A DNA stretch of 64,000 nucleotides from an uncultured Dehalococcoidia bacterium (GTDB lineage Bacteria > Chloroflexota > Dehalococcoidia > Lucifugimonadales > JAAXIE01), in NCBI GenBank assembly GCA_951813255.1, contig OX638353.1:2155472-2219471 (forward strand), written 5' to 3'. Positions 6,770 through 39,475 of this stretch are shown here, in pieces (within the stretch, counting starts at the first letter, position 1; each line of letters begins with the position of its first letter). The translations under genes and the position numbers were made by a program. Under the pieces are notes generated by a model. That model saw nothing but the letters and a program-made list of their open reading frames with translations, was not told where the DNA came from and made no database searches.

Positions 6770-7218
6770 ACCCACTCCCTCCTCCATTCGTCCTGAGCGA
6801 AGTCGAAGGACCCCATGACAAAAACTCCCTTGACAGAACTCACACATGTGTTCTATATTCAATCTACGCGTCGACGCCAACCCCCCGAAGGGCATTCCAG
6901 ACGAAAGGAACCAGAGCAAGGCACCGCCAGCCCATCCTTCCCGCTCCCACAGGAACGGGAACCCTGGTCCCAGAGCTGATCAAAAACTCAGACGGGGCTA
7001 ACCGGGCTGGCCCAAAATCCCGCTCCGGCTACCCACGCCAGCCAGGCAAGCGGGAATCCTGCAGGAGAACGTAAGCCCTTGAAAGCCTTAACAGCCCTGT
7101 CAACAGAAAACCGGGGGGAACTAAAGGTCTCATGAGGCCGCCACCCAGCGGCAAGCTATCCCAACGCGGCCTTGCCGCTCAAGTCGCCATGGTTCAAATC
7201 CGGACCTCAGCTTCAACC

Positions 7219-7250
7219 GGGGCCGTAGCCTCACGGATAGCTACGGCCCC
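7219..7250. other. Stable stem-loop in the long sdhA leader: 11-13 bp perfect stem, 10-nt loop, no U-tract.
   Basis: GGGGCCGTAGC-ctcacggata-GCTACGGCCCC. The flanking CC/GG extend the stem to 13 bp. Confidence 0.5.
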
Positions 7251-7768
7251 GGCCTGCTCCGTTCAGCGCTACGAACACCCCAGGAGAACACTAGGATGCC
7301 CCATACCCGCATTGCAGAGACCACGAATAAAATTCCCCCAACCCCCGGCCTGGGCTCCCTCAAAGCTGGCTCCTATCTGCCCAGCTACCAATCCCGTGCC
7401 ACGAGAATGCACCGGGATTGCCACGAGAATGCACTGGGATCGCCACGGGTATGCCAAGAGGATGCACCGGGAATTGCACCGTTTGTCTACCGTATTACCA
7501 CGGGAATGTTACAAATGTGCAACAATGGTCCCACCCCCCCCGCTACGAACGTGAGACCACGGTCCCGCCAATGTTCCCACCCCCCAAACTACGAACGTGT
7601 CACCACGTTCCCGCCCTTGGCGTACTTCTGCGCCCCTCATCCCTTTGTACGCCTCTCCCCTGCCCAAGCACGTCCTGCCGATTCTGCCTCTACCATGGTA
7701 TACTGGCCCACGGTCTTGGCCCGTCCAGCGGGTCCCGGCCGCAATGTTTGTTGACTTGGGAGGCCAAG

Positions 7769-9448
7769 TTGCTTGAGCATGACGTTTTAGTGGTCGGCGG
7801 CGGGCTGGCCGGTATGCGGGCTGCGCTGGCAGCCCATGCCAACGGGGCCAACACCGCCCTCATCAGCAAGCTCTACCCTGTGCGCAGCCACTCCTGCGCT
7901 GCCCAGGGTGGCATCAATGCAGCCTTGGTTGACCGGGGCGACGACTGGGAAGAGCACGCCTACGAGACGGTCAAGGGCAGCGATTATTTGGGAGACCAGG
8001 ACGCCATCGAAGTCATGTGCCAGATGGCCGGAGGCGAGGTCATCGCCATGGAGCACATGGGCGTGGCATTCAATCGCGACGAGGAGGGCCGCTTGGGCAC
8101 CCGTCGCTTCGGCGGCCAGCAGCGCGCCCGTACCTTCTTCGTCGCCGACTTCACGGGCCAAGCCATGCTGCACGTGATGTTCGAGCAGCTCATGAAATCG
8201 GGCGTCCGCGCCTACAACGAGTGGTTCGTCACCTCTCTTATCATCGAAGACGGCGAGTGCTGTGGTGTCACCGCCATGGAGATACGCACCGGCAGCGTCT
8301 TTGCCATCCGCGCCAAGGCAGTCATCCTCTGCACTGGCGGGTTGGGCCGGCTTTATGAGCCCAGCACCAACGCCATCACCGTCACCGGCGACGGCATGGC
8401 CTTGGCCTACCGCGCCGGCGCCCCCCTTATGGACATGGAAATGGTCCAGTTCCATCCCACCACCCTCAAGGGCAGTGGAGTCCTCATCACCGAAGGGGCC
8501 CGCGGCGACGGCGCCTACCTCATTAACAAAGACGGCGACCGCTTCATGACCAACTACGCCCCCAACATGATGGAATTGGCCTCCCGCGACGTTGTGTCAC
8601 GCGCCGAGACCCGCGAGATCGCCGAGGGCCGCGATACCGACGGCTGCGTCTTCCTTGACTGCCGTCACCTCGGTGAGCAGTTCATCAACGAGCGCCTGTC
8701 CCAGATTCGCGAACTCGGCAAAGACTTGGTCGGCGTCGACATCGTCCACGAACCCATCCCCATCTGCCCCGGCATGCACTACCAGATGGGCGGCATCAAG
8801 ACCGATGTCGACGGGCGCACTCCCCTGCCCGGCGTCTACGCTGCTGGTGAAGCAGCCAACGTCAGCGTCCACGGCAGCAACCGTCTGGGGGCAAACTCCC
8901 TATTGGACACCATCGTCTTCGGCCGCCGCTCCGGTGAGCATGCCGCCGAAGCCACCCGCGGCGTCGATTTCAAGACCTTCAACATAGAGGGCTGGGTAGA
9001 GCGTGAAGAAGAACGTCTCAGAGCCCTCCTAGCCCGCCAACCCAATGGCGACCGCGTCGCCTCCATACGCTTCGACCTCGGCACCGCCATGAACGAACAC
9101 ATAGGCGTGGTCCGCAACGAGGAAGGAATGAAGGAAGGGCTGGAGAAGTTCTATCAGCTCAAGCAGCGATACGAGACGGTGCCAGTTGAAGACAAGGGCC
9201 GCACCTTCAACACCGACCTCGTATTCGCTCTTGAACTCGGCTACATGCTCGACTGCGCCGAGACCATCATCAACGGGGCCATCGAGCGTAAGGAGAGCCG
9301 AGGCGCCCAGTTCCGCAGTGACTACACAGACCGTGACGATGAGAATTGGCTGAGGCACATACTGGTCACCCGCCAGGAAGACGGCCCTGTCGTATCCCAT
9401 CTCCCCGTAGTCATTACCCAATGGCAGCCCCAAGTGAGGAGCTACTGA
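7769..9448 (+). CDS. sdhA: Succinate dehydrogenase / fumarate reductase flavoprotein subunit
   Basis: TTG start at 7769 sits 6 nt after GGGAGG. The N-terminus [22 protein letters not shown] carries the FAD Rossmann motif. Covalent-FAD region [13 protein letters not shown] is present. The upstream extension in the ORF track (7418..) is Pro/Arg-rich and not coding. Confidence 0.9.
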
Positions 9449-23896: not shown

Positions 23897-24183
23897 CCAA
23901 GGCCTCTGAGCGTAGAGGCGTGGGAAGTTCATGCACTGCCCGGCCGTAATGGCGCCGCCGGAGAGTAGGCGGGCCGCCATACTGGCCATGCAATTCCAAG
24001 GCATGCCTCTAGCTGAGGGGCGTGCAATGGCGTGGGACTGTCGAGCCGAGTTGCAGGGCCACGGTTCGTCGGCTAGGGCCGGGGCGGAAGTCCGTAGACC
24101 TCTCCCTCGCTGTAGCTCAGCTTAGTACTCAGGCCGGGGGTACCAAGAGACATGCGATGGGTTAGAGACTCCGCCCATCGCGG

Positions 24184-25989
24184 TTATGCAAGAGTTTCCT
24201 GCATGGGATACGCCCTTTTGCTCTCCTTCCAGTTCCTAGCCTGAAGTAACATTTCCGAGGCGTTGGTGCGGGTCGCACCGCTATCGGAGCCTAGCATCTG
24301 ACTGAGTTCCGTCACCCTGTCCTCGCCGTCCAGGACCTCCACCAATGTCACGGTCCTGTCATGTGAGGCGAGTTTTGTAACCTTAGCGTGATGGTCTGCA
24401 TAGCACGCTATTTGTGGGAGGTGAGTTACACATAGCACCTGGTGGCTATTGGACAGACCCCACAGTTTCTCACCCACGACACCCCCGACTCGGCCTCCTA
24501 TTCCCGCATCGACTTCGTCGAACACGAGTATCGGAATCTGGTCGGCACTCGATAGGATTGTCTTTATGGCGAGCATCAGTCTGGAGGCTTCTCCTCCCGA
24601 GGCGATCCTGGCTAGAGGTCGTGGGGGTTCACCCGGGTTCAGAGAAATCAGGAATTCCACAGAGTCTACACCTGTCCCGTTGAACGCGAGGTGCCTGACG
24701 GACTCCCCGCCCAAAGAAGGTTTTGCGCTGGAGCCCGACTCCACGGTCCCAACGGGCACACCGTCATCCGAGTCTGATTGACGGATATCCACAATCACTT
24801 GAGCGTGTCCCAAGGGCAGTCCTGCGACCTCTTCCTCTATGGCATCAGACAAGCGCGTGGCTGCCTGTTGCCGGGCTTCGGAGAGCTGGCCCGCAAGTCT
24901 GCCAACCTGCGTTAGAAGCTTGGTCTCTCGGGATTTCAATTCCTCAGTACGCTCTTCGCTGTTATGCAGGGTTTCCAACTCCTGCGAGACCGTCTCACCA
25001 AAGGCCTGGATTTCCTCGATAGTACCGCCATACTTCCTCTTGAGACTGTTGATCAAGCCCAAACGCTCCTCGACCTCCTCAAGACGGTTCGCGCTATGTT
25101 CGATGCCATCACGATAGCCTCGGAGAGCACGCGCCAACTCCTCTACCTGGTGGGTCAAGGCGTCTGCCGACTCACGGTTCTGATTCAACGAGGGGTCCAG
25201 TCGTTCCAGCTCGGAAAGGTCCTTGGACACCTGTCCGATAAGGTCCATGACCGATTCGTGCCGACCAGAGCCATCGGATAACGCCCTGTAGGCTTGGTCG
25301 GAGAGTGTGATGATTCGCTCTGCGTTCGCGGCTCGGTCCCTTTCCAGTGTCAGATCATGGTCTTCAGTTGGCTGCAGATTCGCGGTGCTGATCTCCTCTA
25401 CCTGGTATCTCAGATAGTCCATGCGTTGACCGAGCTCTTCTTCATCCTTCAAAAGCTTGTCCAACTCTTGGCGCGCCTCCGCTAGTTGACGGACTTTCTC
25501 CGCCACCTCGCCGCGAAGTTGCCATAGCCCTCCATACTTATCCAGGATATCCATATGCTCACGCACACGGAAAAGGGACAAGTGCTCATTTTGGCCATGG
25601 ATGTCTACCAAGTATTGGACCACTGAGCTTAGCATCCTGAGAGGTACGATTCGCCCATTCACACGGCAGGTGTTGCGTCCATCAAGATTGACCTCCCGCG
25701 CGAGAATTATCTCCCCTTCGGATACGTCAATCTCGTACTCAGCAAGAGCAACATTGATTCTCTGAAACACGTCGTCCCGAAGTAGGAAGATGCCCTCTAC
25801 CCTAGACTGCCGAGCACCGGAACGTACCATGCCCACATCGGCACGTCCTCCGAGTAGAAGGCTCAGCGCGTCCACGATGATCGACTTGCCCGCCCCCGTC
25901 TCCCCGGTTAGCACACTGAAGCCCGGCGCGAACTCGATTTCAAGCTGTTCTATGGTGGCCAGGTTGGTGACACTAAGAAGCCTTAGCAT
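24184..25989 (-). CDS. recN: DNA repair protein RecN
   Basis: N-terminal Walker A (LTGETGAGKSIIVDAL), long coiled coil, C-terminal Walker B / signature region. 601 aa. Confidence 0.85.
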   Translation of the reverse strand: MLRLLSVTNLATIEQLEIEFAPGFSVLTGETGAGKSIIVDALSLLLGGRADVGMVRSGARQSRVEGIFLLRDDVFQRINVALAEYEIDVSEGEIILAREVNLDGRNTCRVNGRIVPLRMLSSVVQYLVDIHGQNEHLSLFRVREHMDILDKYGGLWQLRGEVAEKVRQLAEARQELDKLLKDEEELGQRMDYLRYQVEEISTANLQPTEDHDLTLERDRAANAERIITLSDQAYRALSDGSGRHESVMDLIGQVSKDLSELERLDPSLNQNRESADALTHQVEELARALRGYRDGIEHSANRLEEVEERLGLINSLKRKYGGTIEEIQAFGETVSQELETLHNSEERTEELKSRETKLLTQVGRLAGQLSEARQQAATRLSDAIEEEVAGLPLGHAQVIVDIRQSDSDDGVPVGTVESGSSAKPSLGGESVRHLAFNGTGVDSVEFLISLNPGEPPRPLARIASGGEASRLMLAIKTILSSADQIPILVFDEVDAGIGGRVGGVVGEKLWGLSNSHQVLCVTHLPQIACYADHHAKVTKLASHDRTVTLVEVLDGEDRVTELSQMLGSDSGATRTNASEMLLQARNWKESKRAYPMQETLA

Positions 25990-26392
25990 GGCTATGTCCG
26001 GACCTCCACCCTTCCTAGCGGTGCCCTTGGCCTACCAAAATACTGGTCACATTTGCGCCCATGCAGATGCAACGTCGAGATGTAAGCGAGGGACGGAGCC
26101 CCGCTTGTTCAAGAATTATGAGGTCAATCCCAATAAATCGAAAGACCTTCGAGTTAACGGCCAAGTCGTCCGCCCGTGATACTGCGAGAGTCCTGCTACA
26201 TATCTTCCGTGGTCCATCCTGCCCGAGGAGAGCTCCAGTGCTACTCGAAGTCTGGGAAGACAACTCGGCGGACGAAGCCCACAACGTCCGGAACACGAAG
26301 CATCCTGAAGCCTCTTGCCATCACCATTCTGGCGCGCATGTCATCTCAGGGAGTGGTGCTCATTGAACGGACTACCGAATGAGAGGGGGATG

Positions 26393-26467
26393 TGGAGCCG
26401 GCGAGGGGATTCGAACCCTTGACCTGCGGTTTACGAAACCGCTGCTCTGCCACTGAGCTACGCCGGC
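26393..26467 (-). tRNA. tRNA-Thr (anticodon CGU)
   Basis: The reverse complement is GCCGGCGTAGCTCAGTGGCAGAGCAGCGGTTTCGTAAACCGCAGGTCAAGGGTTCGAATCCCCTCGCCGGCTCCA. It has a 7-bp acceptor stem, anticodon loop TTCGTAA, a TTCGAAT T-loop and encoded CCA. One A-C mismatch sits in the T stem. Confidence 0.85.
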
Positions 26468-26472
26468 AGTCC

Positions 26473-26507
26473 TATAATTATAGAGAGGCCAGCCTTGGGT
26501 TAGCAAA
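26473..26507 (-). promoter_or_regulatory. Putative sigma70-like promoter for tRNA-Thr. On the minus strand: -35 TTGCTA, ~18-nt spacer, -10 TATAAT about 9 nt before the mature 5' end.
   Basis: Reverse complement of 26470-26510 reads ...gTTTGCTAacccaaggctggcctctcTATAATtataggact|GCCGGCG. Confidence 0.4.
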
Positions 26508-26618
26508 CGCATAGCCCGCCCCGCTGGAATTCGCGTCGGGCTACCAACAACGTGCAGCTTGTCCTAAACTACCGTCAAACCACGGTGACCAATTCAACCC
26601 GGCGACGGAGGTGCCCGA

Positions 26619-27479
26619 TTGGCGCTACAGCAGGTGACCAGCAATGTGTTCACGGATATAACGTGCAGGGGGTGTAATTTCGGGTTTCTGACGACCTCGG
26701 ATGGCATCGTTATGTTCGATAGCCCCCACAAGCCCAGCGATGCCATGGCACTCAAGGCGGAGTTGGCGCGCCGGGGAGAGTTGCGCTACATCATCAATAC
26801 CGAGCCCCATGGGGACCACTGGACGGGCAACTCCTTCTTCGATGTGCCAGTGATCGCCCATGAGGGAGTGCGACGGCGCATCCTGGAGACTGACCTTGAA
26901 CAGCATGTGCAGCGGACAGCCTCCTTTGGCCCCGACGAGCCCCAGTACATGGAAGGCTACCAGTTCAACGCTCCTGCCATCACCTTCGAGAACGGCATGA
27001 CCCTGAGGGTCGGCGACCACACCATCCAGATCATCCACATGCCCGGGCACACCGCCTACCAAGCGGCCATCTGCATCAAGGAAGAGGGCGTGGTGTGGAC
27101 CAGCGACAACGTTTTCAACAAGGTGCAGAGCTTCCTCCAGGAATGCAGTCCTGACCAGTGGCTAACTGCGGTGGAGTCGCTCCGTCGCTTGGACGAGGAG
27201 ATATTCGTTCCGGGTCACGGCGAAATTTGCGGCAAGGAATACCTGGACGAGCAGGGCTCTTATATCCAGGAATGGAAGGACTACGTGTGGAATGCTGTGG
27301 AGCGGGGCATGAGCAAGGAGGATGCCATCTACAGCCTGACCAACCTGACGGAGCGGTATCCCATGGAAGCAGCCCACCAAGATGCAGCGGCTGTCATGCG
27401 GATGAACGTGGCTAACCTGCACGACTACCTCACGGGAAACTGGGTGCCATCGAACCCCCAAGCCCCTCCGGCCCGGTAG
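26619..27479 (+). CDS. MBL-fold metallo-hydrolase
   Basis: EPHGDHW (HxHxDH) zinc-binding motif, 286 aa. Confidence 0.75.
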   Translation: MALQQVTSNVFTDITCRGCNFGFLTTSDGIVMFDSPHKPSDAMALKAELARRGELRYIINTEPHGDHWTGNSFFDVPVIAHEGVRRRILETDLEQHVQRTASFGPDEPQYMEGYQFNAPAITFENGMTLRVGDHTIQIIHMPGHTAYQAAICIKEEGVVWTSDNVFNKVQSFLQECSPDQWLTAVESLRRLDEEIFVPGHGEICGKEYLDEQGSYIQEWKDYVWNAVERGMSKEDAIYSLTNLTERYPMEAAHQDAAAVMRMNVANLHDYLTGNWVPSNPQAPPAR

Positions 27480-27555
27480 GGGCTACGCTCCCTGTGCCAG
27501 TAGACGGGAGATGGATGCGAGTTTAGCTTTCCCATCCATCTCCCGTCTCTTCATC

Positions 27556-28656
27556 CTACAGGTTGTACAACGCTTTCGGATTGTGGCAGAGAATGCGCTC
27601 CCGGGTGGCCTCGTCGATGCCGTCCATGCCCCTGAAGATGGAGATGGCATCGATCTCGCTGGACGGGTCGGTGTGGCCGTAGTCGGTGCCGATGACGATG
27701 GAGTTGGGGCCAGCGTATTTCAGCACATACGGGATGTCGTCGTCGGTCTGGCAGGTGACGTATATCTGCCGCTCCCCGAACATGTCCTCGGGCTGAGCCA
27801 TACCCCGGGCTTCGTAGCGACGGGCCACCTCGTGGTGTATCCATGGCACCCACTGGGCCGAGGCCTCGATGATCCCCCACCGCAGCTTGGGGAAGAGCTT
27901 GGGCGCCTCGCCCATCAGCAGGGCGTAGGTCGCAACAATCGTAGGCACCCGGAAGAGGGCGAAGGCCATCGTGTTGAAGCCCTCAGGGAACCCGCGCAGC
28001 AGTTGGACATTGGTTGGATTGGCATTGGCGATGTGCACGGCCACGGCCATGTTGAGGTTGGTGGCCTCCTCGTACACTGGGTAGAAGTAGGGGTCGGTCA
28101 GCGAGCGGTCGCCTTCGAGGGGACGCATGCAAACGGCCACTGAGCCGTTCTCTTTGGCGAAGCGCATCTGGTTCACGGCCTCGTCGAGGGACAGGGTGGG
28201 TATCACGCAGGACCAGTTCAGACGCCCGTTCGACTGCCGGTAGACATCGGCCAGCCACTTGTTCCAAGACCGGCAGAGAGCGGCCTCGCAATCGGGGTCC
28301 TGCGTTACCTGCTCAATCCACATCGTGTTGTGCAGCACTTGCACGTCGATGCCCAGTTGGTCCATGTGGTGGAGGCGCAGCGATACGTCGTCGAGTTCGC
28401 GAGCGGCCTTGGGGGTGGACATGTCCCGGTTGGCCTTGCGCGATAGCTCCTCCAGTTGCTCCTCGCTCAGGTCGGCGAAGCGAAAGCCAGCAGTTGCTCC
28501 GTGGATGGCCCACATCTGGCGCTCCGCGTCATAGGGGTTGGGCAGCAGCACGGGGCGGAACTTCTCCTCCGCGGGTTCCAGATAGTCCCAGGTGCGCTCG
28601 GTCTCGATGACATGAGCATCAGCGTCGATAACCTGTAGCTTGGTCTGGGTCGCCAT
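27556..28656 (-). CDS. Amidohydrolase-2 family protein (ACMSD-like metal-dependent hydrolase/decarboxylase)
   Basis: N-terminal IDADAHVIE metal-binding motif, 366 aa TIM-barrel size. Confidence 0.65.
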   Translation of the reverse strand: MATQTKLQVIDADAHVIETERTWDYLEPAEEKFRPVLLPNPYDAERQMWAIHGATAGFRFADLSEEQLEELSRKANRDMSTPKAARELDDVSLRLHHMDQLGIDVQVLHNTMWIEQVTQDPDCEAALCRSWNKWLADVYRQSNGRLNWSCVIPTLSLDEAVNQMRFAKENGSVAVCMRPLEGDRSLTDPYFYPVYEEATNLNMAVAVHIANANPTNVQLLRGFPEGFNTMAFALFRVPTIVATYALLMGEAPKLFPKLRWGIIEASAQWVPWIHHEVARRYEARGMAQPEDMFGERQIYVTCQTDDDIPYVLKYAGPNSIVIGTDYGHTDPSSEIDAISIFRGMDGIDEATRERILCHNPKALYNL

Positions 28657-28865
28657 TAAGCACCTCCTACCGGTTCTTGAGTAGAAGACCCTGTCTTAAG
28701 GGGCATTCTAGCAGGGGGGCAGGTTGGTGCAAAGCAACGGCCTCCAAGGATCGATCCGGGCCTTGGTCAAGCCCTTTCGCCAGCCGCTATAACCAGCCGC
28801 TATAATCAGTAACGCCATCCCAGTTGTCGTAACCGAGCACGTCCCCAAGCAACTTGTACTAGCTT

Positions 28866-29930
28866 ATGCACGAAGAAACGGCACACCAAAACCTGCCCCA
28901 GCCCCGCATATCCAGACAGCGAGCAGGAGGGCTCCGTGCCCTGCTGCTCGCGCTCAGCATCCTGACCCTCTTCGCCCTCTCCTTGACATGCGGCACATCC
29001 CCCGACGTAACCCCCAGCCCAACCCCCACCCTACTCCCTCTGCCTACTTCCGCAGCCACTTCCGAGCCACCCCCGCTCACGCCCACGCCAACCGTACCGG
29101 AGCCACCACCAGCCCCATCCTTACCCGCAACAATACAACCAGTAGCCACACCCGCGCCGGAGCCACCACCTGCTACCCCCACACCCACGACGGAACCACC
29201 TCCAGCTACCCACGCGCCCACGCCGGAACCACCACCAACCACGCCCGAACCTACACCAGAGACGCCACCAGCCACGCCCGAACCTACACCAGAGACGCCA
29301 CCAGCCACCCCCGAACCTACACCAGAGCCGCCACTAGCCACGCCCGAACCCACACCGGAGCCGCCACCAACTACGCCCGAACCCACACCGGAGCCGCCAC
29401 CCGCTACCCCCGAACCTACGCCAGAGCCGCCACCCGCTACCCCCGAACCCACACCCACCCCCGAAGTCGGCACCAGCATCGGCAACCTAGCCCCAGACTT
29501 CCAGCTACCCTCCGCCCAAGGCTCCAACCACTTCCTGGCATCCTATCGCGGCGAGAAAAACCTGGTCCTGGTGTTCTACCGCGCCTTCTGGTGAACATAC
29601 TGCCGCAGGCAGCTGGATCAGCTGTCAAATAACTACGACGACATCACAGCCCTCGACGCCGAAATACTCGCCATCAGCGTCGACGACCTCAGCGGCGCCA
29701 CCGACATCGCCGACAGGGTAGGCATCCCCTTCCCCGTCCTCTACGACCCCGAAGGCACCGTCCCCAAGGCCTACATGGTCTACGGCCTCCTCGAACCCAA
29801 CCGCGCCGCCCCCTCCACCTTCATCCTCGACAAAAACGGCATCATCACCTGGAAATACATAGGCGCCACCATCTCCGACCGCACAGGCCCCTACAGCATC
29901 ACCCGCGAACTCCAAGCCATCCAAACCTAG
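28866..29930 (+). CDS. Putative selenoprotein: membrane-anchored Prx-like/AhpC-TSA-family thiol-disulfide oxidoreductase with an in-frame TGA (29592..29594) at the first position of the CxxC redox motif (FYRAFW-U-TYC).
   Basis: The 28866..29594 ORF has a signal/anchor (RISRQRAGGLRALLLALSILTLFALSLTCG) and ~190 aa of Pro/Thr/Glu repeats (TPEPTPEPPPA, about 8 copies). It ends at TGA exactly where the Prx_like/Bcp consensus (VLVFYRGxWCPxC) has the redox Cys. The same frame then runs without a start codon for 111 further codons encoding the rest of the thioredoxin fold (TYCRRQLDQL...ILAISVDD...GIPFPVLYDPEG...AYMVYG...STFILDKNGII) to TAG at 29928..29930. Hairpin-capable sequence lies just 3' of the TGA (GCCGCAGGCAGCUGGAUCAGCUGUC). 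Confidence 0.6.
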
Positions 29931-30204
29931 CATCTCCAGCACCCCCACTGCCCGCCTAGCCGCCGCCATAGGAGCCTTTGTCCCAAACTAACCACTTGCT
30001 ACAGCCGTCCATGGATTCCGCCTTCCACAGTTCGACGCAAGGTACCGTTACATTCCTTACGGTGTGCTAGGGTAAACTATCTTTGCATGATGTCATTTGA
30101 CAGCTATTGACATATACTACTGTACTGTACTAACCTGCCCCTGTAGCAATCGCGCAATCACCGGGAGGGGCCCTTTGGCAGACTCCGGCGACCCCGAAGC
30201 TCTG

Positions 30205-30645
30205 ATGTCGTTGCACGATGTGGCCCAATACCTGGCCATGACCGACCGCACCATCTACGACTGGGCCCAGACCGGCCGCATCCCCGCCTTCAAGCTGGGC
30301 GCCACCTGGCGCTTCCGCCGCTCCGAAATCGACGCTTGGCTCCAGAGCCAGCGCTCCGGCCCCGAAGTGTCCCCAGCCAAGCGTCAACCCTCGCAACCGC
30401 TGATACCCCGCACCGACCCCGAACCCACCCGGCGGCAACGGGTCGCTGCCTGCAAGGCAGAGATAGAGACGGCGATATCGGACTCCACGCGAACTACCTT
30501 CCTGATCAGCCAGTTCGAGGATGAGTTCGGCACGAACGTGGTGAGCGAGGCCCTTGAGGAACTGCGCAAGGAAAAGCGAATCACCGTCACCCACATCAAA
30601 GGCCGCGACGGCCTCAGAAATCGAGTCATACGAAGAAGGAGTTGA
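30205..30645 (+). CDS. Helix-turn-helix DNA-binding protein (excisionase/MerR-like HTH_17) with a ~90-aa C-terminal extension
   Basis: MSLHDVAQYLAMTDRTIYDWAQTGRIPAFKLGATWRFRRSEIDAWL matches the excisionase-family HTH. The ORF track extends to 30097, but the domain begins at the 30205 ATG. Confidence 0.6.
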   Translation: MSLHDVAQYLAMTDRTIYDWAQTGRIPAFKLGATWRFRRSEIDAWLQSQRSGPEVSPAKRQPSQPLIPRTDPEPTRRQRVAACKAEIETAISDSTRTTFLISQFEDEFGTNVVSEALEELRKEKRITVTHIKGRDGLRNRVIRRRS

Positions 30646-30648
30646 ACC

Positions 30649-31191
30649 ATGGGCATACTGGGATTCGGCAGAGCCAACAAGCTGGAAGACCTCAAGATCG
30701 ACGACCTTCGCCGCGAACGGGTGGTGCAGGAGGTCGAGCAGGACAACTCTCTCAGGGCCATCCGTCGCGCCCAGCAGGAATACGACCGGCGCCTCCAGTT
30801 GGCCTCTGAGCCAGGTGTATCCGACGCCGAGAAGGACGTAGCTGCCTACCGCATGAAGATAGCCCGGAAGACCAAGGCCAAGTCCGAGACTGACCTGCAG
30901 CAGACCATCACCCGCATGACGGTCCTGGACTCTGCCATCGACGTCATCCACTTGAAGCGCGACCTCCAGAAGAACGGCGTCTGGAAGCGCATCAACGACC
31001 TCGACCCCGAAACCCTCGAAAGGCAACTCAAGGACATCGCCGTCAAGACCAAGGGCTCCAACAACAAGCTAAAGACCATCGTCGACATCCTCGAGAAGGA
31101 TGAGGCCGACGTAGCCTATGAACGAGGCCCGGAATACGACGAGGCCCGGGCAGAAATTGAGCGCATGGCGCAGGAGAAGAGCGGCTGGTAG
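30649..31191 (+). CDS. Coiled-coil protein (180 aa). Possibly PspA/IM30/ESCRT-III-like, but fold unverified.
   Basis: ATG 8 nt after GAAGGAG, 3 nt after the HTH-gene stop. The N-terminus MGILGFGR is reminiscent of the PspA MGIFSRF start. Highly charged heptad-like sequence throughout. Confidence 0.45.
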   Translation: MGILGFGRANKLEDLKIDDLRRERVVQEVEQDNSLRAIRRAQQEYDRRLQLASEPGVSDAEKDVAAYRMKIARKTKAKSETDLQQTITRMTVLDSAIDVIHLKRDLQKNGVWKRINDLDPETLERQLKDIAVKTKGSNNKLKTIVDILEKDEADVAYERGPEYDEARAEIERMAQEKSGW

Positions 31192-31295
31192 TGCCGCGGT
31201 GATGGGTAGCGCACCGACAGCGAGTAGGCCTTCGCTTTCCTGTCTAGCAACGGGTGATGGGCACTTTCGTGCTCTGTCGGCAATGGGAGGTCAAT

Positions 31296-32705
31296 GTGCC
31301 CAAACGCAGGCGCAAGGGTCTATCAGTCATGGAGACAATGGCGGCATTGCTACTCCTGTTGCTGGCTTGGTTCATTGAGCATCCGTGGATTTCGTGGTCG
31401 CTTATGGGCTTCGCATCTGTCCTCGTGCTCATAGGCGCTTGGCGAAAACTCCACACGGACAGGCGCATCACCTCGTCCTTAGGGACATCACCTGCTAACG
31501 ACTCAAACCGAGCGACGCATGCTCCTAGCCCGAACGAGGCGCAAGAACTGGGGGTTTGCGTAAAGGAGGGCGCTTTGACAGACCATGACTCCCTGCTGTG
31601 GCCTGTAACCCCAAGATGGGGACACGTGACTGCCGAACCAAGTCAAGTCGGAATAGTGATGCGCAACGGCAGCTTGCACTCCCGCTGGCATGGGGGTAGG
31701 AAAGCAGTTCCCGTAACGGGTGAGATAAGAACCTACCTTGTGTCTACCAGGCCATTCGACATCCGCTTCAGTGTTTCGGATGCGACACCAGGCCCACAGT
31801 CTGCGCAAGCCATGTTGGAGGGGACAACCAGTGACCACTCGCCGATACACGGATCCGTGGAGGTGAGGCTACAGGTTAATGAGGAAGTCGCCGATTGGCT
31901 GTTGAACATAGGAGGCCAGGTAACTACGACCGACGTAGCACGCCATATCAGACTGGATGTGGCTACGGCCGTAGCGGCGGTTGGGTCTGAACATGCCGCA
32001 TCTGAATTCAGAGGTTATAGCCAAGACATCTCCGAATCGATTAGTGAGGAACTCGAGAAAGCTCTCAAGAGGCACGGCCTGGGGGTAGTGCGACTCTATG
32101 CTAATCTATCGGCTGGAACGCCCACCCTCGACTCAGGTCCCACGAACACCAAAACGGTGTCCACGGATTCCCCACCCCAACCTACCGTGCCAAACACTGA
32201 ACGAGCTTGGATTGTGCGAGGCAAGGCTGGTGGAAAATACTGGGTTGTCGACCAGTTTGTGGACAAGGAGGTCGTCTCGATCGGTTGGCCGGCGATGGGA
32301 GACTTATCGAGGTTCAGCGCCAAGGGAGAACTGAGAAGCGCGCTTAAGAGATTCCACCCTGAGTCGGGAGATGGAACGGTCAATATCCTTTGGGGCTTCT
32401 GCCGGGAAATCTGCGTCGGGGATGTGATTGTAACTCCGGCTCCGAACCCTCTTTCGGCGAAGCCTAGAACGAAGCCGTCGCAGATCGTGATTTGGCGCTG
32501 TATTGGCCCTTACGAGTATAACCCAGGGGTCATAGAGTGCAGCAAATACCCGTTTGCAAGCATCCGGAAAGTAGAGAGGGTGGCTATCGTCAGCGTGTCG
32601 AGGCTCTCACAGAAGCTCCAAGACCGCCTGCAACTACCACCCACAGTGTCCCCAATCAAGCAGCAAGAGTATGTACAGGAACTGGAGTCGGCGATCAAGA
32701 GCTAG
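31296..32705 (+). CDS. SPFH/Band-7 (stomatin/flotillin-like) paralog 1. N-terminal hairpin membrane anchor, SPFH domain, and a C-terminal domain resembling the N-terminal domain of many Mrr-type restriction endonucleases (RAWIVRGKAGGKYWVVDQFVDKEVVSIGWPAMGDLS).
   Basis: GTG start 5 nt after GGGAGG. Basic N-terminus KRRRK then two TM helices. The SPFH core (LLWPVTPRWGHVTAEPSQVGIVMRNG...RTYLVSTRPFDIRF...GSVEVRLQV...GLGVVRLYANLS) aligns with the two downstream paralogs and with HflK/stomatin SPFH motifs. Confidence 0.7.
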   Translation: MPKRRRKGLSVMETMAALLLLLLAWFIEHPWISWSLMGFASVLVLIGAWRKLHTDRRITSSLGTSPANDSNRATHAPSPNEAQELGVCVKEGALTDHDSLLWPVTPRWGHVTAEPSQVGIVMRNGSLHSRWHGGRKAVPVTGEIRTYLVSTRPFDIRFSVSDATPGPQSAQAMLEGTTSDHSPIHGSVEVRLQVNEEVADWLLNIGGQVTTTDVARHIRLDVATAVAAVGSEHAASEFRGYSQDISESISEELEKALKRHGLGVVRLYANLSAGTPTLDSGPTNTKTVSTDSPPQPTVPNTERAWIVRGKAGGKYWVVDQFVDKEVVSIGWPAMGDLSRFSAKGELRSALKRFHPESGDGTVNILWGFCREICVGDVIVTPAPNPLSAKPRTKPSQIVIWRCIGPYEYNPGVIECSKYPFASIRKVERVAIVSVSRLSQKLQDRLQLPPTVSPIKQQEYVQELESAIKS

Positions 32706-32738
32706 AGCGATATCAGGCGAGACCAAGAGAGGGCTCCA

Positions 32739-35252
32739 TTGAGCGAAGAACACCGCGACGACCTAGTATTAGCACCCGGCGAACCCCGCCGGGGCAACCT
32801 CATCATCTACCCCTACCATGTGGGCATCGTCATATGCAACGGAAAAGTGGAAGGCGTCTTCCCCGAAGGTACCAGACGCCTTCCTAGGGGCGATGTGCGT
32901 ACCTATGTGGCCTCCACCGCTCCCTTCAACCTCACCTTCTGGCTCCAAGACCCCGGCGACCCCTCCGAGCCGGGTGAGGGGATGGCATTGGACCAACCCG
33001 TCCTCACTGCCGACGGCCAACTCGTCACCGGCCGCATCGATCTCACACTCTCAGTAGTCCCCGACAACGCAGAACACCTGCTGCAACTCCTTAGCCCCGG
33101 CGGCGCCATCACACGACGCCATGTCGCCGACTCCATCAAGAGCGAACTGCTCGCCAAGGTCCTCGCCCTCGACCTTCACACCCACACCGCAGGCACCCTG
33201 CGCGGAAACCGCGACCTCTTCCAAGGTATCTATGCCTCCCTCGAAATCGAACTCGCATCCACCATCTCCCGCTACGGCCTCAAGCTCGACAACTTCTACG
33301 TCAACTGGGGCCTCATTCCCGAAGAGCGCGAGCGCATCAAGGAAGAACGCCACCAGAGCGTCATCCGCGACATCGAACGCGAGTCCGAGCTTGAGCGTCT
33401 GGGCGGTCGAAGGCCCGGCGGTCCGGGCGGCGGTGGCTCCTCAGTCGGCAGGTCCGGCGGAGCCCCAGGCGGCTGGTTCAACCTTCCACGAGGCATCGGA
33501 GTCCTAGCCCTCATCCTTTTCGCGGCCTTGATTGCAACCCTGTTGGCAGTCGACCCCGCCGGCTGGTTCGACGACTCGCCCGATGCAACGCCAGTCGCTG
33601 CTGCCACTCCCCAGCCCGCTCCAACGTCTGACCGCCCGCCGGCCCCCGCGCCCGCTCCCACCACTGAAGACATTCAGGCAGCAGTCGCCGCCGCCATAGC
33701 CCAACTGCCCCAACCCTCAGCCGGGCCATCCATGGACGAGGTGGCCGCCCTCGTCTCCGCATCCGTTGCGGAGGCGTCCGGCAATAACGCCTCCCCTGAG
33801 GAGATACAAGGCCTCGTGGCCGATACCATCGCCAAAGCCATGGCCAGCCAGCCCCAACCCGAATCCGGCCCCACCCGCGACGAAATCGCAGCCATCATCG
33901 CCGAGGCCATCCCCACTTCCGCCTCCAGCGAGGGCCCCTCTCCGGCAGAGATTCAAGCCATGATTCAGCAGGCCATCGCCTCCCTCCCCCAACCAACCCA
34001 AGCTGAAGCCGGTCCAACCTCCGAGGAAATCGACGCCCAAATTCAGGCAGCCCTCTCCTCCCTCCAACCCGGCATGACCCCGGAACAAGTGCAGGCCGCC
34101 GTGCAACAGGCCGTTACGGCCTCCATCGCATCCATGCCCACGCCGACTCCAGCCCCAACTCCCGCTGCCGCACCGCCTCCCGCAAGCTCGGCCACTCCCG
34201 CGCCCACAGCTACCCCTACTGCCGCGCCCACCGTCCAAGCAACGCCTACCCCCACTCCAGCAACCGAACCACGCGAAGCAGAACTCGTGTGGAGCTACGA
34301 CACGGAATCCGAGGTGTGGTCCTCTCCCGCCGTGTCGGAAGAGTGGGACGTCTTATATGTGGGCGCAAGCCATGGTTACTTGTACGCTTTGGATACGGTG
34401 ACGGGCCAGCTGCTGTGGCGGTACGGACCAGGAGCAACAACTTCCTGGCGATCATGGCCAGTTGTGGTGGGGAAGACAGTGTACACAGGAGGAAATGAGT
34501 ATTACGGCACCGATTTACTAGCCGTAGAAGCAGGGGAACAGCGGTGGGATGTTCGGTCGTGCTACATTTGTGTTGCACCCATTTTCTCCGCTGGGAGCAT
34601 CTACGTGGGCAGCTCGGGGTCGTTATATGCTCTTGACGCGGCCACTGGTGCACAACATTGGTACTACCGTACAGCGGTGAGAGAAGGTTCCATTCGGACA
34701 CGGCCGTCCGTAGTTGACAAGATGGTCTACTTCGGGGCTGATGACAAGCGCATATATGCTCTGACCACGAAAAAGGGCGAATTGATTTGGAGCTACGCCA
34801 CCAATGCCGCAGTCCGCTCTTCTCCTACCGTCGCTGACGGCATCGTGTATGCTGGCTCCAACGACGACCACCTGTACGCGGTGAACGCGGAGGCGGGCGA
34901 GTTCATCTGGCGGTACCGAACGGGCGGAGACGTCATTTCCTCTCCCGCAGTCGCAAACGGCATCGTCTACGTAGGTTCCAATGACGGCAGCCTGTACGCC
35001 CTCGACGCCACAACGGGCACGTTAGCCTGGAGCTACGAGACAGGCGGTGCGGTGGTGTCCTCACCTGCAGTGTCCGACGGGGTCGTGTATGTGGGGTCAT
35101 ACGACGGGTTCCTGTACGCCCTTGACGCCGCCACCGGATCACTGGTCTGGAGTTATGAGACCGAAGACAAAGTAGCGTCCTCGCCAGCCGTATCGGGCGA
35201 TAACGTGTACGTGGGGTCGGTGGATGGGCATGTGTACGCCTTCCGGAAGTGA
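32739..35252 (+). CDS. SPFH/Band-7 paralog 2 (837 aa). Domain order: SPFH domain, Gly-rich linker, single TM helix, seven ~23-aa amphipathic repeats (PS.EEIQA.I..AIA..PQP), a Pro/Thr/Ala linker, and a C-terminal PQQ-like/BamB-like beta-propeller.
   Basis: TTG start after AGAGAGG. SPFH motifs VLTADGQLVTGRIDLTLSVVPDNAEHLL and GLKLDNFYVNWG. TM helix GIGVLALILFAALIATLLAV. About 8 repeats of (V/I)Y(V/A)GSxDGxLYALDAxTGxxxW typical of the PQQ beta-propeller fold. Confidence 0.75.
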   Translation: MSEEHRDDLVLAPGEPRRGNLIIYPYHVGIVICNGKVEGVFPEGTRRLPRGDVRTYVASTAPFNLTFWLQDPGDPSEPGEGMALDQPVLTADGQLVTGRIDLTLSVVPDNAEHLLQLLSPGGAITRRHVADSIKSELLAKVLALDLHTHTAGTLRGNRDLFQGIYASLEIELASTISRYGLKLDNFYVNWGLIPEERERIKEERHQSVIRDIERESELERLGGRRPGGPGGGGSSVGRSGGAPGGWFNLPRGIGVLALILFAALIATLLAVDPAGWFDDSPDATPVAAATPQPAPTSDRPPAPAPAPTTEDIQAAVAAAIAQLPQPSAGPSMDEVAALVSASVAEASGNNASPEEIQGLVADTIAKAMASQPQPESGPTRDEIAAIIAEAIPTSASSEGPSPAEIQAMIQQAIASLPQPTQAEAGPTSEEIDAQIQAALSSLQPGMTPEQVQAAVQQAVTASIASMPTPTPAPTPAAAPPPASSATPAPTATPTAAPTVQATPTPTPATEPREAELVWSYDTESEVWSSPAVSEEWDVLYVGASHGYLYALDTVTGQLLWRYGPGATTSWRSWPVVVGKTVYTGGNEYYGTDLLAVEAGEQRWDVRSCYICVAPIFSAGSIYVGSSGSLYALDAATGAQHWYYRTAVREGSIRTRPSVVDKMVYFGADDKRIYALTTKKGELIWSYATNAAVRSSPTVADGIVYAGSNDDHLYAVNAEAGEFIWRYRTGGDVISSPAVANGIVYVGSNDGSLYALDATTGTLAWSYETGGAVVSSPAVSDGVVYVGSYDGFLYALDAATGSLVWSYETEDKVASSPAVSGDNVYVGSVDGHVYAFRK

Positions 35253-35308
35253 TCGGCAGTGGGCCGCGCCTATATTCCTTGCATGGAGGTTCTGACTTGA
35301 GGAATCCT

Positions 35309-36265
35309 ATGCCTGCCGACAGTGTATTGTGGCCCGCAAAACCCAAGCGTGGCTGGCTGACGGCCGACGTTCATCAAGTGGCTGTCGTCATGTGGGATGG
35401 TACCGTGGACGATGTCTTTTGGGCTGACCGGAAGAAGATGCGCGATGGCCGGGGTCCCTTCTATCTTGCCTCCACTGCCCCGTTTGAAGTCGCGTACAGC
35501 TTGAAGGCTTCTTCCCCTGGGGAAGAGTCGAGCGGGAGTCCGACATTGGACCAGTCAGTCTATACATCCGACGCGCAACCTGTGATGGGCCAGCTTACAG
35601 TCGGCTTGTCCTTGGCCCCCGAAAGGGTCGAACGTCTGCTCCCGTTGCGTGGCCGAGGACAATGCGTTACCAGTTGGGATATCGCCTTGGCCATCAAGAA
35701 TGACTGTGCAACAGCAGTAGCAGATGTAGTCGCTCAACATACCGCCAGTGACCTTCAAGGCAAGAGGCAAGCTATCCGGGAATCAATCCGAAACCAATTG
35801 GCTGCACCAGCAGCTCGCTTTGGCTTGCAGTGTGGGAGTGTTTACCCAAATCTTTCGGTCATTACATGCTCAACGCCACCGGTCATTACACGCCCAAAGC
35901 CACCAGTCATCACGCGCCCAACGCCACCAGTCATCACGCGCCCAACGCCACCAGTCATCACACGCCCAACGCCACCGCAGAGCGCCAAATGCCAAACCTT
36001 CTCACGTGCGCATACCCCTCAGGCCGAAGAGCGCTTTCAAGCGTGGATGCGAGCGAATCCCACAGGCTACGTCTTCAATCACTTCAGAGGCAGCAATCCC
36101 GGCTATAATCTGCTCCATCAACTGCCCTGTCCCAGCTTTCAGCGTCAGGCTACCACAGCAGTCCAAAAGTTCTGCTGCACCGACCGCGCCTGCATCGAAC
36201 GCACCATCCGCGAACTCCGAGGCGAATCCTGGCAATTGTGCGGCAACGGCTGCTGTCCGGGGTAG
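35309..36265 (+). CDS. SPFH/Band-7 paralog 3. SPFH domain, five tandem PPVITRPT octapeptide repeats, and a C-terminal 7-Cys domain.
   Basis: ATG 5 nt after GAGGA. N-terminus LWPAKPKRGWLTADVHQVAVVMWDG aligns with paralogs 1 and 2. SPFH end motif GLQCGSVYPNLS. The C-terminus is CQTFS...CPSF...FCCTDRAC...LCGNGCCPG. Confidence 0.7.
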   Translation: MPADSVLWPAKPKRGWLTADVHQVAVVMWDGTVDDVFWADRKKMRDGRGPFYLASTAPFEVAYSLKASSPGEESSGSPTLDQSVYTSDAQPVMGQLTVGLSLAPERVERLLPLRGRGQCVTSWDIALAIKNDCATAVADVVAQHTASDLQGKRQAIRESIRNQLAAPAARFGLQCGSVYPNLSVITCSTPPVITRPKPPVITRPTPPVITRPTPPVITRPTPPQSAKCQTFSRAHTPQAEERFQAWMRANPTGYVFNHFRGSNPGYNLLHQLPCPSFQRQATTAVQKFCCTDRACIERTIRELRGESWQLCGNGCCPG

Positions 36266-36315
36266 CAGCATAGGTCAGCATGGAACAGGACCGAAAGCCG
36301 CCTCACGCTGGGAAC

Positions 36316-36651
36316 TTATTCATTCACCAAGACGTCAATGGTAGTGCCGAGAGCACTCGCTATGCGGGCCAAGGCAGAGGTGGAGCCGGGTTTTCGGCCA
36401 CGCTCAATCTCGGAGATGTAACCTGTCGCGATGCCGGTCTTCTGGGACAGTTCCCTCAGGGTCATGCCTTGGTGGTCCCGAAACGCAACGATGGGCCTCT
36501 TTCCCCGCATGATTTCCAGTGCGACCTCGTGGGGAACGCGCGCACCGTCATCAGCGTCGCGGGCAGCCAGCATATCCTCAAGTTGGCTGTTGCGCTCAAC
36601 AAGCGCGTCGTACTCTACTCGAGACAAGGTTATGGTCTCTTCTCTAGTCAT
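36316..36651 (-). CDS. XRE-family HTH transcriptional regulator (Cro/C1-type), convergent with the SPFH genes
   Basis: C-terminal HTH MTLRELSQKTGIATGYISEIERGRKP. The start is most likely the ATG at 36651, preceded by TAGGAGAGAAG. The ORF-track start at 36705 is also possible. Confidence 0.7.
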   Translation of the reverse strand: MTREETITLSRVEYDALVERNSQLEDMLAARDADDGARVPHEVALEIMRGKRPIVAFRDHQGMTLRELSQKTGIATGYISEIERGRKPGSTSALARIASALGTTIDVLVNE

Positions 36652-36821
36652 AGGCTTCTCTCCTATGCCGGGGCTTCCCCCCCATGACAAAAACCACTTG
36701 CGCACCCCTCCTCCACTAGTCCATCATCAAACCATAGCCAAGCCACGCGCCATCAATCTAAGGCAGGAACCGAAACACCATGAGGACCAAATGGACACCC
36801 GAACAGCCAATTCCACCAGCC

Positions 36822-37140
36822 CCCGTCATTCCCGTACACCAGCCGTCATTCCTGCGCCCCAACCCGTCATTCCTGCGCAGGCAGGAATCCACGCGCCCCG
36901 AATCCACTGCTCCAACCCCTCCAACGACCCCGCCACCAAAAATGTCACACTGTGACACTCTGGTCAGCTACGAAAATGTCACAAATGTCACATTTCCCAA
37001 AATCTGTGACATTTTTCGTATCTGAAAAATGTCACACCCTTTCCGTATCTGGCCAGCTAGCAAAATGTCACAAATGACACACTTTTCAGCTACAAAAAAC
37101 AAATTTTAGCTACGATCGGTGTGACATTGTGACATTTCCG
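36822..37140. repeat. Composite repeat region upstream of the XRE gene: three degenerate copies of the palindromic REP-like unit (CGTCATTCC[CT]G...), then an AT-rich array of about 9 TGTCACA/TGTGACA palindromic sites with CAGCTACGAAAA motifs.
   Basis: 36865..36897 is CGTCATTCCTGCGCAGGCAGGAATCCACGCGCC. 36939..37135 contains AAAATGTCACA x6 plus TGTGACA x3. GC is much lower here than in the flanks. Confidence 0.8.
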
Positions 37141-37159
37141 GCCCGTCCAGGAGGCCCTG

Positions 37160-39475
37160 CTACCCCTCCACCGGCTCAAACGCCGTGATCGGCGGTGCCT
37201 CCCCCTCATACCGCTCCACCTGCACCAGCACCGTCTGCGCCGTCGGCGACTGCGCCAGCCTGCTCGTCCCCTTATCCCGCGTCAGCACATTCGGGTTCCC
37301 ATGCTTGTCCATGCTCTTCGGCTCCCCCGGATCAACCGGGTCATACCACGCCCCCGTCGAAAGCTGCACCACCCCGGTCCGCACCTCATCCGTAACATAA
37401 GCCCCCGCCAGGCAAGTCCCACGGTCATTGAACAACCTCACCACATCCCCATTCCCAATCCCCCGGTCCGCAGCATCCTTCGGGTTCATCCACACCGGCT
37501 CCCGGCCCGCCACCTTCCGGGCCTGGCTCAACGCCCCATTGTCCAACTGGCTATGCAGCCGGTACCGCGGCTGGTTCGAAATCATATGCAGTGGATACCT
37601 CTCCGCCAACTCCGACCCCAGCCACTCCGCCGGCTCCATCCAGGTCGGATGCCCCGGACAATCGTCATACCCGAACCCGTCAATCGTCTCCGAGAACAAC
37701 TCAATCTTCCCCGAAGGCGTCCGCAACGGACTATTCACCGGGTCATCCCGGAAAGCCTTCATAAAAATCTGGGGCGTCTCCGGCCCCGGAAACTCCACAT
37801 GCCCGATCTCCCAGAAGCGGTCGAAGTCCGGCACCTCCATGCCCTGCTCACCCGCCCGCTGCGCCGCCTGAGCATAGATATACCGCAGCCACTCCATCTC
37901 ATCCCGCCCCTCGGTATACTCCTCCCGGAAACCCAGCCTCCCAGCCAAATCAGCAAATATGTCGTACTCCGACCGCGCCTCACCCATCGGCTCAATCGCC
38001 TGCTGCATCGCAAACCAGAACCGGTCATAGGTCGAAGCCCCAATATCATTCCGCTCCATCGTCGTCGTGCACGGCAGCACAATATCAGCCCGCCGCGCAG
38101 CCGCCGTCCACCAAGGCTCGTTCACCACCACCGTGTCCGGCTTCTGCCAAGCCCGCAGCATCATGTTGATGTCCTGCTGCTTATGGAAGGGATTACCCCC
38201 AGCCCAGTAGAGCAGGTGAATGTCCGGGTACTCCATCCGTCGCCCGTTGAAGTCATACTCCTGCCGCGGGTTCAGCAACATCTCGCTGACACGCGACACC
38301 GGGATGAAAGCCTCCACATCACTCGCTCCCTTGGGCAGGGACGGCGGTGCCACCCGGGGACTCGGATTCCCGAACCCCCCACTGGAACCATACCCGAATC
38401 CAAATCCCCCACCCGGCAACCCCACCTGCCCCAGCATCGACGACAGCGCCACCGCAGCCCAGAAAGGCTGCTCGCCATGGTCGGCACGCTGCACCGACCA
38501 AGTCACGTTCATCAAACTCCGCGTCGATGCCATCCTCCGCGCCAACCCGCTGATCGTCCCAGCATCCACCTCGGTAATCTCACTCGCCCACTCCGGCGTC
38601 TTCACCACCCCGTCCGTCTCACCCATCACATAAGCCCTGACCCGCTCAAACCCCACGCAGTACTCACTCAGAAAAGCTTCGTCATGCAGGTTCTCGCTGA
38701 TAAGCGTATGCATCATCCCCAGCATGAAGGCCACATCCGTATTGGGCCTCAGCGGTATCCACTCCGCGTTGATATCCTTCGCCATATCATCCCGTATCGG
38801 GCTGATGCAAACGAACTCCATGCCCTTGTCCTGCGCCAGCGTCTGCCAGTCCCCTTGGTCGTGACTCCCCAAGCCATCCTTGGTCACTTGGGCATTCTTC
38901 GGCGACAACCCGCCAAACACCACCATCAGTTTCGTGTTCTCAGCAATCACCGGCCACGAAGTGCCAGGCCCGGTAACCGGCTCCAAGCTCCCGATCACCC
39001 GCGGCAGGATCACGCTGGCAGCCCCAAAGGAGTAGTTGGTCACATAGCCCACACGCCCGCCAAAGCTATTGAAGAACCGGGTGAGCTGCCCCTCAGAGCT
39101 GTGAAAAGCACCCGCGCTCCCCCACCCGGACGGCGCATAAAACGCCTCATTTCCATAGGTATCCTTAACCCTCTGCAACTCAGCAGCCAGCAAATCAAGC
39201 GCCTGCTCCCACGACACCTGCACCATAGGCTCCACTCCCCGCTTCGAGGTGTCGCTCCGATGCCCCTGCTCCAGCCAACCCCGCCGCACCATGGGATGCG
39301 CAATCCGTGCTTTGGAGTGCACCGCGCTCGGCACCGCATCAGCCAGAGGACTCGGACGTGCATCGCGCTCGAAGGGCCGTGTACCCACCACCTTTCCATC
39401 CTCCACCTCAACATCAAAGATGCCCCAGTGGTTGCCAGTGTGGTAACGCTTCGGTTCAGTGGTGGTCATGTTCAT
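37160..39475 (-). CDS. Molybdopterin-dependent oxidoreductase, DMSO-reductase family (BisC/TorZ-like S-/N-oxide reductase)
   Basis: 771 aa. N-terminal TGNHWGIFDVEVEDGKVV is BisC-like. Length and periodic Gly/Pro-rich MGD-binding segments match the family. Confidence 0.75.
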   Translation of the reverse strand: MNMTTTEPKRYHTGNHWGIFDVEVEDGKVVGTRPFERDARPSPLADAVPSAVHSKARIAHPMVRRGWLEQGHRSDTSKRGVEPMVQVSWEQALDLLAAELQRVKDTYGNEAFYAPSGWGSAGAFHSSEGQLTRFFNSFGGRVGYVTNYSFGAASVILPRVIGSLEPVTGPGTSWPVIAENTKLMVVFGGLSPKNAQVTKDGLGSHDQGDWQTLAQDKGMEFVCISPIRDDMAKDINAEWIPLRPNTDVAFMLGMMHTLISENLHDEAFLSEYCVGFERVRAYVMGETDGVVKTPEWASEITEVDAGTISGLARRMASTRSLMNVTWSVQRADHGEQPFWAAVALSSMLGQVGLPGGGFGFGYGSSGGFGNPSPRVAPPSLPKGASDVEAFIPVSRVSEMLLNPRQEYDFNGRRMEYPDIHLLYWAGGNPFHKQQDINMMLRAWQKPDTVVVNEPWWTAAARRADIVLPCTTTMERNDIGASTYDRFWFAMQQAIEPMGEARSEYDIFADLAGRLGFREEYTEGRDEMEWLRYIYAQAAQRAGEQGMEVPDFDRFWEIGHVEFPGPETPQIFMKAFRDDPVNSPLRTPSGKIELFSETIDGFGYDDCPGHPTWMEPAEWLGSELAERYPLHMISNQPRYRLHSQLDNGALSQARKVAGREPVWMNPKDAADRGIGNGDVVRLFNDRGTCLAGAYVTDEVRTGVVQLSTGAWYDPVDPGEPKSMDKHGNPNVLTRDKGTSRLAQSPTAQTVLVQVERYEGEAPPITAFEPVEG

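Follow-up and report, generated by a model that had tools for sequence, protein, structure and literature searches.

SPFH proteins are universal scaffolds of membrane microdomains, whose selection of cargo is poorly understood and which are normally anchored at their N-terminus on one side of the membrane. What, then, should be made of a gene in which an SPFH domain, a transmembrane (TM) helix, a series of short helices and a beta-propeller follow one another in a single chain? Such a gene occupies positions 32739..35252 (+) of the window, by which we mean the whole 64,000-nt stretch of DNA analysed here; all features of the window described below lie on the same strand. The open reading frame was called from a TTG start and encodes 837 aa, and the public protein collection, from its NCBI and ENA sources, contains an identical protein recorded on a 3.4-Mb contig. 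The product is bitopic in the membrane. An SPFH-fold domain and, behind it, a charged helix make up its first ~220 residues; its last ~565 residues comprise an acidic P/A segment, seven short helices, a P/T/A linker that is disordered and a compact, PQQ-like propeller of eight blades. The explanation that we favour, with a probability of about 0.6, is that this protein displays a propeller at the cell surface, or senses through it, from a cytoplasmic platform. The parts are known ones, and their combination does not seem to have been described before. Literature searches on SPFH with propeller, Chloroflexi and defence gave no account of this SPFH subfamily, and PHROGs contained no match for the protein.

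Is the long reading frame real? One possible explanation of its composition is an artefact or a recent, functionless fusion, for instance an assembly or frameshift error that joined an SPFH gene to a lipoprotein-propeller gene. Two observations point that way: at locus L001 the two halves of the same fusion lie in different frames, and a stand-alone repeat-propeller gene (P0084) is found in the same chromosomal island of the syntenic locus L003. However, all that interrupts the L001 copy is a 1-nt shift in a G4 homopolymer just after the TM, on a 9x contig, and an intact ortholog of 834 aa, 85% identical (P0203), is encoded on an independent 33x contig of 2.26 Mb. Compared with P0203, every segment, junction included, shows purifying selection (dN/dS 0.07-0.51; 0.07 in the SPFH domain, 0.43 in the repeats and 0.11-0.51 in the propeller). 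The fusion is therefore real and under selection. The same SPFH-TM-PT-PQQ plan also recurs, with different linkers, in the more distant proteins P0206 (the L005 gene), P0207 and P0216, so that an artefact is already largely refuted and we consider it most improbable. The original prediction had called the architecture unusual, and so it is, although the plan is not unique, since it recurs within a small subfamily.

The SPFH (Band 7) domain extends over aa ~8-193 (32760..33317) and is predicted to be cytoplasmic. Its alpha/beta fold, with SPFH1 and SPFH2 as in the superfamily, was confirmed structurally. The score against Pfam Band_7 (PF01145) was 21.9 bits, just under the cut-off of 23.6, and relatives reached 35.7 (P0206), 37.4 (P0244) and 31.3 bits (P0218). 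When a profile of the subfamily was compared with PDB sequences, no SPFH chain was retrieved and the spurious matches fell in the variable tail only. Behind the domain, the model contains a charged, E/R-rich, CC1-like helix (aa 194-222; 33318..33404), which is lengthened in some relatives by ERRHE-type repeats and supplies the coiled coil expected after an SPFH domain; no CC2 helix lies between it and the TM. The segment that follows is a flexible Gly/Arg-rich linker (aa 223-251; 33405..33491) that contains 13 G and 4 R but neither D nor E, and whose pLDDT is below 50 at aa 231-250. The N-terminal anchor that usually stands ahead of an SPFH domain is absent, there being no hydrophobic segment before aa 245.

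On which sides of the membrane do the two large domains lie? Only one segment exceeded the hydropathy threshold, at aa 252-271 (33492..33551; KD 2.92), in agreement with the single TM proposed from the first reading of the sequence and with a modelled helix at aa 252-270; the hydropathy scan revealed no N-terminal signal or lipobox. Several independent lines, drawn from the positive-inside rule and from comparative evidence, indicate that the SPFH domain is intracellular and the propeller extracellular, with the TM predicted as N-in/C-out. The flanking charges are +4/0 on the N-terminal side of the TM and +1/-5 on its C-terminal side: the 31 aa ahead contain 4 Arg and no acidic residue, and the 34 aa behind, which form an acidic P/A-rich segment by composition and have low pLDDT (aa 272-305; 33552..33653), contain 5 Asp and 1 Arg. 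In P0084, which has no SPFH domain, the same repeats, PT linker and propeller immediately follow a signal peptide or lipobox (WAVGC). Among 203 family members, all PQQ (4/4), PD40 (3/3) and Excalibur-type (4/4) domains are found behind a TM, whereas no TM separates DUF4268 (28/28) and ankyrin domains (10/11) from the SPFH domain. Cytoplasmic-type C-termini come without a TM and extracellular-type ones sit behind a TM and a PT linker. Charge bias, P0084 and this family pattern all favour the opposite sides first assigned to a cytoplasmic SPFH domain and a periplasmic or extracellular propeller; "periplasmic" itself is probably the wrong word, because the genomic relatives found all belong to Dehalococcoidia, a class of Chloroflexota usually considered to have no outer membrane. 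The same assignment of sides is favoured by another gene in the window, which encodes a lipobox followed by a PT-rich linker.

Between the TM and the propeller, seven degenerate helical repeats of 20-27 aa each cover aa 306-466 (33654..34136). The core motif [EDA][EDQ][IV]xxx[IV]xxx[IVL] occurs seven times in this region, compared with a mean of 0.036 in shuffled versions of it, and none of 20,000 shuffles reached seven. AlphaFold2 placed exactly seven helices, coinciding with the seven motif positions, so that the number of tandem repeats initially proposed holds; at their pLDDT of 55-82, the model does not appear to fix how the helices pack. It had further been claimed that the DNA of the repeats is well conserved, that the array expanded recently and that the repeats are amphipathic, and the first two claims failed, while the third was not confirmed. 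The 54-nt repeat cores share 41-61% pairwise identity (mean 51%), against a same-gene, in-frame background of 29% +/- 7%, and 17-50% at the amino-acid level; the best DNA families among the repeats reach 60-78%, with a weak double-unit period of 48 aa (144 nt). Tandem Repeats Finder, run on 32000-36000, reported no array within 33640-34130 and found only the 24-nt repeat of a neighbouring gene. The helical hydrophobic moment, 0.20-0.37, was reached by 8-49% of shuffles and does not demonstrate that the helices are amphipathic. At the DNA level the repeats are diverged and old, and their expansion is not recent, because the 85%-identical ortholog already carries seven units that match one-to-one. 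Variation in repeat number, which had been suggested as a check, was absent from this ortholog and present among more distant relatives, with 4, 7, 7 and 8 copies. A disordered P/T/A-rich linker (aa 467-512; 34137..34274) with 16 P, 12 T and 12 A in 46 residues and a pLDDT of 31-35 leads from the repeats to the propeller.

The propeller, predicted to be extracytoplasmic, occupies aa 513-837 (34275..35249). Its Pfam scores lie well above the gathering thresholds (PF13570, 227 vs 133 bits; PF13360, 165.8 vs 27.6; PF01011, 84.6 vs 26.7) and assign it to the PQQ-like repeat beta-propeller superfamily. The eight BamB-like blades of the original prediction are borne out by the model, which folds as a beta-propeller of eight four-stranded blades closed by an N-terminal velcro strand, with a pLDDT of 90-98 across most blades and 72-86 in blades 2-3. 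The best Foldseek matches in the PDB were the designed eight-blade protein Cake8 (TM 0.93) and BamB, whose chains gave E-values of 1e-23 to 1e-25 and target-normalised TM scores of about 0.8-0.85.

Such matches, together with Pfam descriptions of the strong PQQ and PQQ_2 hits that name quinoprotein dehydrogenases and BamB, might suggest that the propeller is the functional core, either a BamB-type assembly factor or a PQQ-dependent dehydrogenase, and that the SPFH domain is an unusual anchor for it. We find this very unlikely. Both the BamB models (TIGR03300, 159.7 vs 285.2 bits; NF008351, 158.7 vs 423) and the quinoprotein models (TIGR03075, 108.7 vs 480; TIGR04528, 86.6 vs 650; TIGR03074, 45.5 vs 833) remain far below their cut-offs, and for this reason "BamB-like" and "PQQ" are best read as labels of fold only. 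The closest structure to this minimal propeller is an idealised designed protein, and BamB works with BamA in outer membranes, a compartment that is not known in Dehalococcoidia. Because the propeller has only 325 aa, with blades of ~40 aa, and scores 109 bits against the 480 required by TIGR03075, we read it as a putative non-catalytic binding module for a protein or glycan ligand. The best NCBIfam match was the propeller region of AfsK (NF053615, 220.7 vs 1300 bits), limited to the propeller part, and Pfam detected no protein kinase (Pkinase) domain in the 837-aa protein.

The subfamily to which the gene belongs combines a conserved N-terminal SPFH module with swappable C-terminal modules. 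It is small: a search of 1.84 billion proteins with its profile yielded no more than 227 cluster representatives, and all 16 genome loci found lie in Dehalococcoidia. In the window, the gene is flanked by two further SPFH genes, which agrees with its description as a paralog. Paralog A (31254..32705; 483 aa as listed; Band_7, 31.7 bits) has an N-terminal hydrophobic stretch, an SPFH domain and a C-terminal domain, and shares 30% identity with the N-terminal part of the 837-aa protein. Paralog C (35249..36265; 338 aa; Band_7, 23.6 bits), which shares its first 4 nt with the end of the 837-aa gene, consists of an SPFH domain, five PPVITRPT repeats encoded by a 24-nt unit (5 copies, 91% matches, 35858-35976) and a Cys-rich tail; its ortholog in L001 lies at 7055-7972. 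Upstream are an HTH_17 (excisionase/MerR-like, MAD1-like) gene (30097..30645; Pfam HTH_17, 1e-15), whose true start is probably internal, near aa 37, and a gene for a 180-aa protein predicted from its sequence pattern to be helix-rich (30649..31191). The order HTH_17, 180-aa gene, SPFH-X is found at nine loci, and the HTH_17 gene stands directly upstream of SPFH genes in L001, L005, L010, L011, L012, L014, L015, L019 and L020. A cassette holds 1-3 SPFH paralogs, with tandem ones in the window, L001, L005 and L020. A promoter and terminator scan gave fewer sites than expected by chance.

A strain-variable island harbours the cassette, which at two loci (L001 and L020) adjoins a large serine recombinase. 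Indeed, L003 is syntenic on both flanks, but a different insert of 5.7 kb replaces window positions ~23897-37160; tRNA-Thr-derived direct repeats were searched as att sites of the island and none were found. This setting raises the question of whether the cassette is a mobile conflict or defence module, in which the propeller would sense or block an invader (phage or competing cell) and the SPFH platform would relay to effector domains of co-assembled paralogs (DUF4268, PDC-S02-like, HEPN-associated). Such a role would extend the surface-display explanation and does not exclude it. In its favour are, besides the island and its recombinases, the swapping of C-terminal domains on a conserved N-terminal module, the presence of multiple copies per genome (five loci in OZ251484.1 and three in OY282442.1), neighbouring genes with a SocA_Panacea toxin-antitoxin-type domain and of the PDDEXK/REase type, and three HEPN_Swt1 genes after an SPFH gene in L002. 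The C-terminal domain of paralog A, moreover, resembles the PADLOC candidate PDC-S02 (1.5e-11 over aa 317-466), and the HTH protein resembles MAD1 of the methylation-associated defence system (mad1, 1.5e-7). Nevertheless, these two were the only matches in PADLOC-DB v2, which contained none for the 837-aa protein itself, and the similarity to the NCBIfam MAD1 model (73.7 bits, under the cut-off of 80) covers a generic 49-aa HTH only. In viral contigs, neither the SPFH module nor the 180-aa protein had any relative. The propeller is also locally hypervariable: its identity to the ortholog is 56% in blades 2-4 (aa 558-660) and 93% in blades 5-8. This could reflect an arms race, but with a dN/dS of 0.51 and a dS raised to 0.80 the divergence fits recombination or relaxed constraint equally well. 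On present evidence we regard a defence function as rather unlikely.

A broader proposal may be put forward only tentatively, as one that we also consider unlikely, namely that the HTH_17/180-aa/SPFH-X cassette is a new mobile, modular transmembrane system of Dehalococcoidia, in which an SPFH cage, serving defence or conflict between cells, couples a hypervariable propeller sensor at the surface to effectors. Subunits that differ in the C-terminus behind their SPFH module would then co-assemble in one membrane-bound platform, and sister subunits would supply DUF4268, PDC-S02-like, ankyrin and HEPN-associated Zn-ribbon domains in the cytoplasm.

Might the cassette instead maintain the envelope, as a membrane-stress module like PspA-YdjGHI (SamGHI) of B. 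subtilis? The 180-aa protein would then be PspA/ESCRT-III-like and recruited by the SPFH protein, and the propeller would monitor or organise the envelope. The TM-less cytosolic SPFH protein YdjI/SamI offers a precedent, and the gene immediately ahead of the SPFH genes always encodes a small, apparently helical protein: the 180-aa protein, 57-88% identical in eight loci, always lies between the HTH_17 and SPFH genes. It has 144 homologs, all of ~180 aa and unnamed or "hypothetical", some of them from marine (TARA) samples. Against this, hhalign gave a probability of 0.45% for its similarity to E. coli PspA, a weak negative as the PspA sequence was entered by hand; Pfam yielded nothing credible (best E 0.007, in 2/9 members) and PDB sequences no match at E up to 10. 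Housekeeping stress systems are usually not multi-copy, domain-swapping or island-borne, as this cassette is, and we regard an envelope-maintenance role as quite doubtful.

Returning to surface display or sensing from a cytoplasmic platform, how might such a protein work? By analogy with SPFH proteins in general, the SPFH part would oligomerise in the cytoplasm under the membrane, and it may co-assemble with the neighbouring paralogs, in the manner of the hetero-oligomers HflK/HflC, PHB1/2, flotillin-1/2 and erlin-1/2. The TM helix would carry the chain outward and a stalk of ~240 residues, made up of the post-TM segment, the helices and the PT linker, would hold the propeller at a distance from the membrane, at the cell surface layer or beyond it. 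Assembly would cluster many propellers at the surface, and ligand binding could be coupled physically to the cytoplasmic SPFH platform that bears the effector or adaptor domains of the paralogs. Oligomerisation, hetero-assembly with paralogs, ligand binding and signalling are all suggested here by the behaviour of the families concerned. In known SPFH cages, the TM precedes the SPFH domain and such inverted anchoring is not known to occur; because the TM of the 837-aa protein follows the coiled coil, and CC2 and the C-terminal crown are missing, ring formation may differ or be absent.

The interest of the locus lies in an anchor that follows the scaffold domain and takes a large putative binding domain across the membrane, in a family whose C-terminal module switches freely between domains of the inside type and domains of the outside type. 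Provided that SPFH modules assemble here in their usual way, recognition at the surface would be naturally coupled to a platform in the cytoplasm. The genes would also constitute an undescribed cassette, borne on islands and specific to the lineage, in Dehalococcoidia, a class with few cultured members. In practical terms, the family offers a clean set of domain swaps made by nature, with which the recruitment of partners by SPFH scaffolds could be studied.

How does the protein compare with known systems? With the SPFH/Band 7 scaffolds HflK/HflC, QmcA, prohibitins, erlins, flotillins and stomatin it shares membrane association and side-by-side paralogous genes, as in hetero-oligomer pairs. 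Unlike them, it lacks an N-terminal anchor and has its TM after the coiled-coil helix, followed by a large extracellular part; it has one short helix, no CC2 and no C-terminal crown, and its subfamily is highly divergent in sequence, with swappable C-terminal domains. An N-terminal anchor is typical of SPFH proteins, though not universal: B. subtilis YdjI/SamI is a TM-less cytosolic SPFH protein that is recruited to the membrane by partners and localises PspA (PMC8581546; bioRxiv 10.64898/2026.02.06.704340; PMC11188069). The pspA-ydjGHI/samGHI operon resembles the cassette in the missing N-terminal TM, the position at the cytoplasmic membrane face and the co-encoded small helical and membrane partners (PMC8581546), but YdjI has no TM or extracellular domain at all, the 180-aa partner has no similarity to PspA and the cassette is multi-copy and island-borne. 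Eight four-stranded blades with velcro closure are common to the propeller and to BamB and other PQQ-like eight-bladed propellers (PF13360/PF13570); in contrast to BamB, the 837-aa protein is no lipoprotein, has no BAM context and includes a cytoplasmic domain, to which a TM and a stalk of ~240 aa tether the propeller. The succession of cytoplasmic module, one TM, linker and propeller is that of the PQQ-propeller receptor Ser/Thr kinases of Chloroflexota and actinobacteria (AfsK-like, PknD-type), and several of the closest propeller homologs (P0082, P0086, P0102, P0144, P0150 and P0167) carry kinase domains. Here the cytoplasmic module is an SPFH scaffold in place of the kinase, so that the 837-aa chain has no enzymatic output domain. 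Finally, lipoprotein or TM-anchored proteins of the P0084 type in related Dehalococcoidia differ in their anchor, a signal peptide or lipobox, in having no SPFH domain and, in P0084, only 4 repeats, but they share the type of helical repeat, the PT linker, the "PREAEL(V/M)WSY" junction, a 62% identical propeller and a location in the syntenic island.

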